Positions 56,085-60,176 of a stretch of DNA of 64,000 nucleotides are shown here, piece after piece. This DNA comes from Aplysia californica (Eukaryota), in NCBI RefSeq assembly GCF_000002075.1, contig NW_004797656.1, forward strand, positions 512,438 to 576,437. Direction: 5' to 3'. Each line of letters begins with the position of its first letter. Within the stretch, counting starts at the first letter, position 1. The translations under genes and the position numbers were made by a program. A model generated the notes under the pieces. It had not been told where the DNA came from, made no database searches, and saw nothing but the letters and a program-made list of their open reading frames with translations.

Positions 56085-59000
56085 TTATGTGCTGCGATTT
56101 GCTCTGCAAAGAGAGCAGCTTGTTTCCCCTTCCCCATCCTCACAATCACCATCACAAGCAACATGTATCCAACAGTTACACTCTGCACATTCAAACCAGT
56201 TGACATCTTCACTTTCAGTTTTGTCGTCATGTTCCCAACATTTCGCACACACATCTGGAGATATTTTTGATAATTCATCATGTAATTTAACTTTAAGTAG
56301 AGAATCTGGTTTCTTCAAAGATAATTTAGAAATTTTTCTGGATTTTCGTTTCGTTGAAAAAAATCTTCGCTGTGTTTCGAATTTTTTGTTAGAAGAAAAG
56401 GTCTTTTTCTTGGTAAAAGTCTTCCCTAGTACAAGATGTCTTGTCCCACATCCAATTTGATAAGCATCTCTCAATCGTTGTACTATAGTTTGTAAAGTGT
56501 TTATATCATTATCTTTTTTTGCGTCTTGTAATAAATCTATTAAATCACTTGCAATACTCATTCCCGTTGAAACTAGCTTATCTACATTATTACTTGATTC
56601 TGGTTTATTTTCGCATAATACTTCTTTATAAAATTCAAGATGGTCAACAGTCTCTTGTTCATCATGTTGTTGCTCAACTTTAGGGGTTTGTTGCTTGTCC
56701 CTATTAAATGCCATGTGAACAGCATGTATATGTTTACATATGATATTTTTGCGTTGGAAATCTTCACAAGTGCAATGGTACATATGCACACAAACAGAGC
56801 ATAAATCACATATTAATTTACAGCCACAAGGTCTGTCGGAATTTTGTGTAACATTATACATTTGATTAGGTACAGATGAAGAGGGAACTCTCCACTCAAT
56901 GATTTCATCATCCTCTTCAGCATTTCTTTTTATGCCTGTAATGTTTTCTCCTTCTCTGTGTCTCTTTCTTATCTCTATCATGTGGGAGCTCACTGTCCCC
57001 ATTTCCTTGGTAATCAACTGTGCAGTTGCCTTATCTTTGGCAATTTTGAGCAGAACGGCCAACAAATTATCCACTCTTCTGTTTTGTTTTCTGTTGAAAT
57101 AGTTTGTTTTCAAAACACGGTGAAACGATTCTGCATGCATGTTAGTATTCGTTGGTGAATCAATGCGGAAGCAATGTGCCCATTGTGAGATTTTGCCTTC
57201 ACTTACATATGTATTATCAAAATAGGTATGAAATGTAGGACAACGTGGTTTTATGTAGGCCAAAAATCCTTGAAGGCTCTTGCGGAATTCTGATTCGTCA
57301 CGTAGCTGTTGTAATGCTTTGATATGTTGATAAATCTTTTCTGCAAATTCATGATCTTTTATTATCTCTTGTGCTTTTTGTCTCCAAGCTTTATCTAAAT
57401 GCCAATCACAGTACAATCTTTTTTTGGGTTTGGGAAAAACTTGGCACCAGGCATTATAAAAGTTATTGGCAAGGTCGCTCATAAAAAATTCAGTTTCAAA
57501 TGACTGATCACAATTAATTAAAACAGCTTCCATGAAAATTTTTAAAATGTTGGAATCTTCTCGGTTAGATATTGCCCAGGCAACGGGCATAGACTGTCGA
57601 TAATCATCTAATACTAAAATAGTTGTTAGGTAAAAGTCATATTGAGTAGTGCCATGTGTTGAGTCCATGAGTATAATTTTTGACGCATGTTTTTTCATCA
57701 TTTGTTGTTGAAATTTTGTTTGAATACCTAATAAATAATCTTCAATATTCAAAAATTTATGTTCATTAGTCTGTTGTTTGAAAAAAATTATTGGATTGTT
57801 GTCCTCTTTACTTAATTCCTCCACCCATAAATCTACGCTAGTCTTGTCATCTCTGTGCTTTTCGGTGCGGGATATATTAAATTGTCTGTGTATGTTGTGT
57901 AAATCTTGTGGTCTTATTAAACTGTCTCTGTTAATAACGGTCATACTCTCTCTGAGGTTATAAAGTAACTTATTAGGCTCAACGCCTTGATTTAATTTTC
58001 CGGCGATGTGTGCCCTAGTTTCAGCTGATATTTTCAGATGACCCAGTTTAAAGTCGTGGCCAGTATGTTGCAAACAGTATTCCACCGTGACGGACCCATC
58101 GTTTATTTTTTTAAGAGCAGTCATGTAAGCTGTGCAGTTTCTTCCCATTCTGCACAGACCTACAGACTTTGGTGCTCGCTTGCGAACTTCTAACTGTGAA
58201 CGTATTCCAGACCTGTGACAGTAAAACCTTTGACACTGAATGGTTTCTGTATTACGGGTAATAATGGTTGAACCACAGGGTTTATAAAACTGGGTGGATG
58301 TTTCTTTTTCTACCCTATTTCTCCACTCAAAAAAGTCTTCCTCAGATGGGAATGTGTGTTTGAGTATTTGTAAGTTATGCTGATGTTGAATGTTGTAATG
58401 TTGTATTAATGTTCGTATTTGTGAACATTTGTAATAACATATTGTACAAAAGTTTTTATTAGTGTCTGAGTGTGTATTTTGAAATTCCTCAGTGTGCTTT
58501 CTTTTTTTGTGTGAAAACAGCGACTGCCTACATTTAAACTCTTGGCTACAAAATTGGCAAATGAGTGGTGTCAGTTTTGAGTGTTTTTCTTTTATGTTGT
58601 GCCCTGTGTGACTGATGGTCTGCGTGTTTGTACCCTGTTGCTTTAACTGTTGGGCATTGCTGAGGGTAGGCTGTGAGTGTGACTGCTTGGAGTTATCACC
58701 TGTGTGACTGATGGTCTGCGTGTTTGTACCCTGTTGCTTTAACTGTTGGGCATTGCTGAGGGTAGGCTGTGAGTGTGACTGCTTGGAGTTATCACCTGTG
58801 TGACTGATGGTCTGCGTGTTTGTACCCTGTTGCTTTAACTGTTGGGCATTGCTGAGGGTAGGCTGTGAGTGTGACTGCTTGGAGTTATCACCTGTGTGAC
58901 TGATGGTCTGCGTGTTTGTACCCTGTTGCTTTAACTGTTGGGCATTGCTGAGGGTAGGCTGTGAGTGTGACTGCTTGGAGTTATCACCTGTGTGACTGAT

Positions 59001-59932
59001 GGTCTGCGTGTTTGTGCCCTGCTGGTTTGTTTGTTGGTGAGCTTGGTTACCTTTGCTTGGTGCTGACATGTTGAACTGGGTTTGGTTGCCACAGTTTTGG
59101 CGCTTTGTGTCTGTGTGTGCTTTGTATGTTGCTCTTCTTTTGCGTCCTAACTGGGGATCTCCACAGTACGTGTGGTCCTGTGTGTGCTTGTTTGAATGAG
59201 CTGTGAAGTTTTGGTTGCATGCTGAATGCCAGTGTGAAGTCTGTTCATAGGGCAGGGTTTGTAAGAAAGCAATGTCAATGGCACCATCCATGAACCAACA
59301 CATCAGCACTCTCCTAAGGTAGTGCTGGTATCTGGTTGGTTCATGAAGGAACCGTCTTAGTCCCGAGCGAGGTCCTGTTAGTTCTTGGAACAGGTGGTTG
59401 TCCAGAGCAGCAACAATTGCACAAACAACCGCCACTACACCGCAGACATCACTACATGTCTGAAGAGGGTAGTTATTACAGTTGGGCCTGCAGGTGTGGT
59501 TATAACCTAGTGGTACATGCATATCATTGACAATTACCTCATTCAAGAAAAGGCCAAGGACCTGTGTGTACGTCGACAAGTACTGCAGCAGGTCACGGGG
59601 AGGACCCCACGCTAAACTATCGCAGTATTTGACCACAGGGCGGTCAGACAAGTCCATGGTGATCAGCACCCAGTGGTTCCCTGGCCTCTTAGGTGTAGCA
59701 AAATATACCTCATTAGGTGTTTTGCCAACATTGGCCACAAACACCAGTTGCTGCAGCTGGTCGAGGTTCCATCCCTGGACCATCCTCCGGAACAGGTCTG
59801 GGTTGGAGGCACAGAGGCACTGGCACAAGGTGGTGTCTTGGGCCTCATTTACCTGGTCCAGCAGCCAGACGATATGGCCAGTATTGAGCCAGCCGGTCCC
59901 GGTCAGCTCCGCCATCTCTTCTGCTGTGCAAC
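56085..59932 (-). CDS. MULE/Mutator-superfamily transposase fused to ULP1(C48)-like protease, C2H2 fingers, SWIM and PHD finger (main exon)
   Basis: Uninterrupted 1285-aa ORF. ULP-like motifs GNHWVL / YCDSL / PLQTCSDVCG. Two C2H2 fingers (CQFC..HKKRKH; CTIC..HYNIQH). FYCHRSG..C..HTGH Zn domain. MULE core ILMDSTHGT, FMSD, YCDWH, NMHAESFH. SWIM CTC..CKH. C4HC3 PHD at the C-terminus. Splice acceptor ttttag at 59933-59934. Confidence 0.85.
58604..59020 (-). repeat. Coding tandem repeat, 96 nt / 32 aa unit, about 4.3 copies
   Basis: Unit KQQGTNTQTISHTGDNSKQSHSQPTLSNAQQL, essentially identical copies with a 96-nt period (e.g. 58611 and 58707). Confidence 0.95.
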
Positions 59933-60101
59933 CTAAAAACAAAATACCAATATTTGCTCTTCAGTATTTCTGCTTTTATGTTTGAGTTTTTATAGGGGTG
60001 CGTACATCAGGCTGGGTAAATTTACGTGAAACTGAAATGGGCGGTGTTGTGGTTGGCGATACCAAGAAACACCGATTTGCGTAAATAAACTATGCACATA
60101 C

Positions 60102-60176
60102 CGTACTTTTTGTCATTAATCTGCCGGAAATCACTTATAAATTGCAGGTGGTTGAAATCATTTGAAGCATCAGGAT
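60102..60176 (-). CDS. Candidate upstream 75-nt exon of the MULE-ULP1 gene
   Basis: ttttcttAG acceptor and G|GTATGT donor. Phase 1 joins in frame to the main exon (…INDKKY-G-CTAEEM…) across a 169-nt intron. Confidence 0.4.

Follow-up and report, generated by a model that had tools for sequence, protein, structure and literature searches.

Ulp1-type protease domains have been seen on transposons since 2006–2010, and reviews still call their function unknown. According to the available text of Bao, Kapitonov and Jurka (2010; PMC2836005), Ulp1 occurs in Mutator/MuDR elements of hydra, lancelet, Arabidopsis, maize, rice and melon, Ginger1 transposons carry Ulp1 or Ulp1 together with a PHD finger, and Ulp1 was proposed to act on repair factors. 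A PHD finger is given as the mark of Rehavkus transposons in the accessible portion of PMC6446971. Here we describe a Mutator-type element in a 64,000-nucleotide stretch of the Aplysia californica genome (contig NW_004797656.1, positions 512,438 to 576,437; hereafter the window), whose transposase is joined to an N-terminal protease domain of predicted SENP/Ulp1 fold and to a C-terminal PHD-type finger. A first-pass annotation made from the sequence alone had pointed to this gene as a candidate anti-silencing transposon or domesticated gene.

The window element resembles the elements of the 2010 study in joining a DDE (Asp-Asp-Glu) transposase to an Ulp1-type protease, and Ginger1-9_HM has Ulp1 plus PHD. 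As far as the available text of that study describes them, the extra domains of Ginger1 are C-terminal and recognised as pfam02902, whereas the window protease is N-terminal, falls below the Pfam cut-off and bears a His/Cys insert (PMC2836005). With Rehavkus it shares a 9-bp target-site duplication (TSD), terminal inverted repeats (TIRs) and one open reading frame with a PHD finger; Rehavkus differs, in a comparison by description only, as an outgroup to the Mutator-like elements (MULEs) that occurs in arthropods and annelids and for which the accessible portion mentions neither SWIM nor protease (PMC6446971). The window protein, in contrast, scores above the Pfam cut-off for MULE and contains C2H2 and SWIM domains. 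Rehavkus has a minisatellite before its 3′ TIR; near the 3′ TIR of the window element only a CTAGAT microsatellite (~50780–51100) was seen, and the ~67-bp repeats lie at the 5′ end. The Kaonashi (KIU)/VANC genes of the Arabidopsis VANDAL elements likewise tie a Mutator-borne Ulp1 to sequence-specific anti-silencing; there it is a separate plant gene on a non-TIR MULE and concerns DNA methylation, whereas in the window element, an animal TIR transposon, protease and transposase form one protein (PMC13317346, from the part available). Cellular SENP/Ulp1 enzymes (MEROPS C48, clan CE) and NEDP1/SENP8 share the fold and the His-Asp-Gln-Cys arrangement, and SENP/Ulp1 are set apart by an identity of 14–19% and by the extra His/Cys insert of the window domain.

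The general combination of Ulp1 and transposase is already in print in the accessible portions of PMC2836005 and PMC6446971. The literature yielded no account of a protease at the N terminus of an animal MULE, of the insert or of the gastropod derivative presented below, which is weak evidence with Repbase Reports, most subscription journals and bioRxiv supplements outside its scope. The available parts of PMC6431247 and PMC10027918 contain nothing on the N-terminal protease–MULE layout. An N-terminal SENP-fold protease on an animal MULE is a new arrangement of a known transposon habit.

The boundaries of the element are as follows (positions in the window).

50368..50376, plus strand: left 9-bp TSD, TACGAATAT; an identical 9-mer follows the right TIR
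50377..50416, plus strand: left TIR of ~40 bp, 87.5% identical to the right TIR
50377..64000, minus strand, continuing 661 bp past the window end (G000:C386:562814-577098): whole Mutator-type element of 14,285 bp, delimited by a TIR pair with identical 9-bp flanks

The right end was located with the neighbouring contig stretch, and the 661 bp beyond the window end hold the 5′ TIR and the ~67-bp subterminal repeats. A blind scan for TIRs with TSDs recovered the same pair; its other 9-bp matches came from microsatellites or tandem repeats, apart from one weaker pair on another contig (C441). A candidate left end at 49591–50337 was rejected as a separate small inverted-repeat element. Exact matches to the TIR end motif number 235 genome-wide, compared to none for the reversed control. 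Among 30 TIR loci fetched, seven possessed both ends, all flanked by a 9-bp TSD (perfect in six); these short derivatives span 0.5–1.4 kb and are 84–96% alike. A DNA search with the transposase core hit six places in the genome, and searches at the protein level retrieved 19 and 18 matches, most of them broken relatives. One sister copy (C636) is 91–96% identical to 51662–59903 and has ~10 frame-breaking indels and three stops, while the window copy has none. A second (C699) is internally deleted and retains its 3′ TIR at a different flank, marking an independent site. The element belongs to the Mutator/MULE superfamily, which we delimited by a D, D, CxxH, E transposase, TIRs with a 9–11-bp TSD and copies at independent sites: it displays the MULE DDE motifs, TIRs with a 9-bp TSD and copies at independent sites. 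The window copy is the only full-length unbroken copy found of this low-copy family. The TIRs, the TSD, the sister copies and the short derivatives thus answer the initial question of transposon or domesticated gene in favour of a transposon, and the intact TIRs and TSD speak against a domesticated gene.

The transposase gene is represented by a minus-strand frame at 56085–59960 with 1291 open codons from stop to stop; counted from the first Met (residue 16) it encodes 1276 aa. It had previously been called an intact frame of 1285 aa ending at 60176; the frame is indeed open and unbroken, and these two values need a small correction. All other N-free frames in the window have at most 182 codons. 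The frame starts at a pyrimidine-rich AG splice acceptor (59934–59933, phase 1), and two paralogs in the same genome, on contigs C33 and C548, have an intron at the identical position and phase; both possess a further coding exon upstream (44 and 41 bits), with a conserved WF..FQDxIW segment. The acceptor and the shared intron show that the frame is no whole gene: it is the final large exon of a spliced one. Its parts are:

56085..59932, minus strand: large terminal coding exon of the protease–transposase–PHD gene, unbroken (open frame; intron shared with the C33 and C548 paralogs)
59265..59932, minus strand: SENP/Ulp1-fold (clan CE) cysteine protease domain by prediction, aa ~10–232 (H96, D114, Q167, C173 and an insert with H148/H155/C157/C161/C169)
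58578..59057, minus strand: Q/S/T/N-rich linker of tandem 96-bp/32-aa repeats (repeat finding)
58041..58559, minus strand: two C2H2 fingers and a WRKY/FAR1-like zinc domain (C581..H635), from motifs kept in full-length relatives
57021..57863, minus strand: MULE RNase H-like catalytic core (D766, D829, C851xxH854, E944; PF10551, E = 7.3e-10)
56730..56774, minus strand: SWIM zinc finger, aa 1063–1077 (PF04434, E = 0.006, under the cut-off; kept in 13/13 aligned proteins)
56106..56249, minus strand: C4HC3 PHD-type finger, aa 1238–1285 (pattern and family profile)

Every motif named in the first-pass annotation could be located in the translation. The Mutator transposase it had recognised has all of its catalytic residues, and PF10551 scores 39.6 bits on the whole protein (cut-off 27.6). 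The Pfam search that had been suggested places MULE above and SWIM below the cut-off and gives no match for C48 or PHD on the whole protein; a match to LPD23 fell on the low-complexity repeats and was disregarded. The C2H2 fingers and the WRKY/FAR1-like domain are putative DNA-binding modules, and a FAR1 Pfam match in 3/30 relatives supports the latter assignment. The copy number of the 32-aa repeat differs between the C636 and window copies. A 25-nt piece resembling the 96-bp coding repeat stands at 63135–63159, between N stretches and 4 kb upstream of the array.

The protease domain is recognised by profile and by structure. Taken in isolation it reaches 13.9 bits with Pfam PF02902 (Peptidase_C48; E = 0.049), short of the 20.7-bit cut-off, and C48 was matched at E ≤ 0.1 in 25 of 71 aligned relatives. 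A family profile against the PDB retrieved ChlaDUB1, Ulp1 and SENP1 at E ~3e-6 to 1e-5, and the ESM Atlas returned C48-bearing clusters at 0.94–0.95. The AlphaFold2 model (pLDDT 94.6) matched SENP5, Ulp1 and SENP2 at E ~4e-8 in Foldseek; VIA-align placed SENP3 first (Z 17.8, rmsd 2.7, 176 aligned), followed by SENP5 (17.4), SENP1 (16.0), Ulp1 (15.7) and NEDP1 (14.4), and all 29 rows with Z ≥ 5 were CE-type proteases or fold relatives. Leaving the substrate aside, the predicted clan CE/SENP–Ulp1 fold with a His-Asp-Gln-Cys arrangement is well supported, and the SENP/Ulp1-type protease with intact triad proposed in the first pass is borne out by the fold match. A profile built from four protease sequences found 674 proteins at E ≤ 0.001 (150 listed), compared to one relative among 365 candidates in a word-indexed search with the protease region. 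Across 85 near-full-length domains the catalytic residues are kept in 83 (His), 84 (Asp), 80 (Gln) and 74 (Cys), and the second set of H148, H155, C157, C161 and C169 in 82, 67, 84, 84 and 70, respectively; this second set probably forms a zinc-binding insert. Since the domain scores below the Pfam cut-off, protease-bearing Mutator elements are under-annotated. Adenovirus and African swine fever virus proteases cleave at Gly-Gly sites; no such site was found in the sequence of the main protein, which argues against self-cleavage of that type. Five relatives (P0004, P0010, P0012, P0016 and P0091) carry two or three tandem copies of the protease domain; several of them have lost the catalytic Cys, and no transposase part was detected in the first four.

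The PHD assignment rests on the C4HC3 pattern and the family profile, which gave PDB matches at E ≤ 0.01 on the C-terminal finger in 13/13 cases and so upholds the earlier call; matches of single sequences are weak (E ≥ 0.13), and PF00628 matches 8/30 relatives and not the main protein. Two Trp positions are conserved in the finger. They resemble a cage for methylated lysine 4 of histone H3, and the finger is a candidate for histone-tail binding.

To assess selection on this copy, we counted private changes in a polarised three-way comparison over 554 codons. The window copy acquired 14 silent and 6 replacement changes, while its two dead sisters acquired 13 silent and 36 replacement changes and two stops (Fisher p = 0.001). 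Within the protease alone, the window copy has 7 silent and 3 replacement changes (binomial p = 0.002 against neutrality; Fisher p = 0.06 against the sisters). This silent bias shows purifying selection on the lineage of the window copy. It fits a lineage that was still transposing after its sisters died as well as host selection on the window copy; continued transposition is favoured because the TIRs and TSD are preserved and a frameshift allele occurs in one RNA run. The family offers a clean test set, with an unbroken copy whose protease selection has been measured, dead sisters as neutral controls and short derivatives as substrates, to which a likely domesticated gastropod gene with the protease as its best-conserved part can be added.

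A search with the core and C-terminus yielded 69 proteins, eight of them with an N-terminal protease. The same layout, as read from the predicted proteins, occurs in Aplysia, Babylonia, Priapulus, Sanderia and Patiria, which include gastropods, a priapulid, a jellyfish and a sea star; proteins from Nucella and Holothuria in which no core was detected have the protease domain too. Three 99%-identical, full-length 1160-aa proteins of this layout lie on separate contigs of one further sequence collection and suggest a young family in it. In a quick tree (59 ungrouped rows left out of its group table, without the C548 frame or a named Rehavkus sequence) the protease-bearing rows are scattered in several places among the others, as would fit an old fusion with losses or truncated gene calls. 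The same Mutator lineage includes an oyster protein with an N-terminal OTU protease (P0236) and a protein with a C-terminal Pfam C48 domain (P0242), as if ubiquitin-like proteases had been captured more than once. Among nine non-domesticated proteins, the identities of protease and core co-vary (Mantel rho 0.58, p = 0.0006); with three domesticated proteins added, rho is 0.17 and not significant.

The two paralogs in the Aplysia genome differ in their state. The C33 gene (2411640–2418145, plus strand; loci L013 and L022) is a second unbroken paralog with a 1200-codon exon, 39% identity and the same full layout, closest to the Babylonia proteins; P0003 (A. californica XP_005091692) matches its frame and, like Babylonia P0255, includes the upstream exon. 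The C548 gene (349017–352323, minus strand; loci L023, L041 and L177) has its H/D/Q/C residues and SWIM finger intact and is devoid of the C2H2, WRKY-like and PHD parts and of the CxxH and E residues, so that the protease is kept and the PHD finger gone; Bradybaena and Elysia proteins are similar. It is the best genome match of the Bradybaena protein (778 vs 183 bits). Between C548, Bradybaena and Elysia the protease is 56–66% and the core 38–51% identical, whereas transposon proteins show the reverse. The surroundings of C33 (35 kb read) and C548 (20 kb read) yielded no TIR pair with a 9-bp TSD. Judged from these sequences, C548 is likely a domesticated gene in which the protease was retained while transposase catalysis disappeared, and it is possibly more interesting than the window element.

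Taken together, we consider it probable, with moderate confidence, that the transposase of this low-copy Mutator transposon includes a functional SENP-fold protease, which would take SUMO or a different ubiquitin-like tag off proteins locally. The zinc domains would bind the TIR and the subterminal repeats, the DDE core would cut and paste the element, and the PHD finger would bias binding towards histone-marked chromatin; in the least certain step, the tethered protease would strip a ubiquitin-like tag from proteins where the transposase is bound. As to its target, a role at the transposition or repair step, resetting the modification of the transposase and of repair factors at the break, is a tentative possibility, and local deSUMOylation that relieves SUMO-dependent silencing of the element is somewhat unlikely; other substrates account for the rest.

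Several observations weigh against this reading. The fold is common to NEDP1 and bacterial deubiquitinases, ChlaDUB1 is level with Ulp1 in the sequence profile, and the SENP rows exceed NEDP1 by only ~1.3–3.4 Z units. The acidic residue that follows the WLN motif of Ulp1 has a role in SUMO contact, and it is not conserved in the window family. The PHD finger is not tied to the protease: its pattern is present in 28/61 relatives without a detected protease and in only 4/14 with it, a count over 75 proteins (66 from the core and C-terminus search, nine picked for their protease) in which intron-blind gene calls may hide proteases or be truncated. The special coupling of PHD and protease envisaged in the first pass is thus not supported. 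The conserved upstream protease exon of C33 and C548 was not found in the readable DNA upstream of the window exon, where 1,449 bases are N, and hence the first helix may be missing from the protease of the window copy. Among the RNA joints listed, none leads into the 59933 acceptor, one run's contig (depth 45) has a 1-base deletion inside the frame, i.e. a frameshift allele, and RNA contigs over the protease end differ much from the window copy, one resembling the dead C699 copy. Finally, a near-identical second full copy was not found in the genome DNA search with the core (best 96%) and the short derivatives differ by 4–16%, so current mobility appears unsupported by copy similarity.

For a first exon there is one candidate, on sequence grounds only:

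661-bp stretch past the window end: candidate first exon

A possible 75-nt exon within 59960–60278 was rejected; the stretch is single-copy, and a comparison with the conserved upstream exon gave it no score. The sequence preceding the minisatellite of the C636 copy, considered as a missing exon, proved to be another dispersed repeat. RNA coverage at ~55.7–58.6 kb corresponds to the 3′ two-thirds of the main exon, and near-identical sequence to the window copy is present in the contigs of 3/3 contig runs, from three studies. A run recorded as RNA has few reads, with 12 on the plus and none on the minus strand at 57728. In most stranded libraries such a pattern denotes transposase-sense RNA.

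A more far-reaching version of the favoured reading would see an old animal Mutator lineage (jellyfish, priapulid, gastropods, echinoderms) with its own undescribed family of zinc-insert SENP-fold proteases, acting as a DNA-tethered deSUMOylase against SUMO-dependent silencing by Piwi-interacting RNAs (piRNAs), an animal counterpart of VANC/KIU, and tamed as a host gene in heterobranch gastropods, where the DNA-binding, catalytic and PHD parts were discarded; we regard this as speculative and rather improbable. Unlikely, too, is the complete model of the first-pass annotation, the protease as a dedicated anti-silencing device, with the PHD and DNA-binding domains bringing a deSUMOylase to the element's own chromatin and undoing piRNA-guided, SUMO-dependent trimethylation of histone H3 lysine 9. 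SENP enzymes do lead the fold search, SUMO is required for piRNA-guided silencing in Drosophila (10.1101/533091, accessible portion), plant KIU genes join Ulp1 to VANC anti-silencing proteins (PMC13317346, available part) and the AtMu1 transposase activates cognate copies (10.64898/2026.08.24.746577, as far as its accessible text goes). Set against these are the uncoupled distribution of PHD and protease, the OTU and C-terminal C48 domains of P0236 and P0242, which suggest that any ubiquitin-like protease serves, and the statement, in the same available part of PMC13317346, that the function of the plant Ulp1 domain is unknown. Should the enzyme turn out to be a deSUMOylase that acts on silencing, it would give animal transposons a counter-defence of their own against piRNA-guided silencing of chromatin.

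It is less plausible still that the window copy is immobile and kept by the host in an early stage of domestication, like its C548 relative. A single unbroken copy under purifying selection, its near-identical sequence in all three contig runs and the precedent within the family would agree with this; both TIRs and a perfect TSD remain, however, selection during transposition gives the same silent bias, and the frameshift allele is at odds with it. Loss of TIRs and TSD and single-copy orthologs would mark a domesticated gene, a pattern that C548 fits and the window copy, with its intact ends, does not. That the protease is a non-functional passenger captured by the transposon is highly improbable: triad residues are lost in some relatives (P0036), the full H-D-Q-C-C set is present in only 60/85 domains and most close transposases (61/75) show no such domain, but the triad is conserved from jellyfish to sea star and gastropods, the silent bias extends into the protease domain and protease and core co-vary among the non-domesticated proteins.

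The left arm of the element contains a second, dead gene that faces the main gene:

50584..55590, plus strand: dead, internally deleted paralogous transposase gene (tblastn, 33–60% identity in pieces to the main protein)
~50584–50725, ~51378–51522 and from ~53718, plus strand: its exons 1, 2 and 3

This relic once had protease, C2H2 and zinc DNA-binding regions, and most of its catalytic core is deleted; by eye, exon 2 resembles the conserved upstream protease exon in a decayed state. We rejected the possibility that the relic works as an accessory gene in the manner of mudrB, on account of its stops and frameshifts, several of them common to the C636 copy, and of a remnant of the late transposase core. 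The relic is still spliced, with GT..AG joints 50723>51376 and 51521>53717 in contigs of 2/4 RNA runs, and, spliced from the left TIR, might give rise to antisense or double-stranded RNA directed at the transposase. Rearranged fragments on C2604 and C763 (L011 and L012), ~80% identical to the DNA-binding region, are joined to sequence 90% identical to relic exon 1.

Further repeats surround the element. A short derivative of the same TIR family (L010) lies ~6 kb past its right end, ~6.7 kb beyond the window end. A 740-bp element (60592–61331) that has short TIRs and is flanked by an 8-bp TSD is nested in its intron. Also inserted there is a frame of 120 codons at 61247–61609, which by eye resembles a retroelement fragment. 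Unrelated inverted-repeat elements near the Mutator copy occupy 49591–50337, 47593–48377 and 10035–13056, the last flanked by an 8-bp direct repeat.

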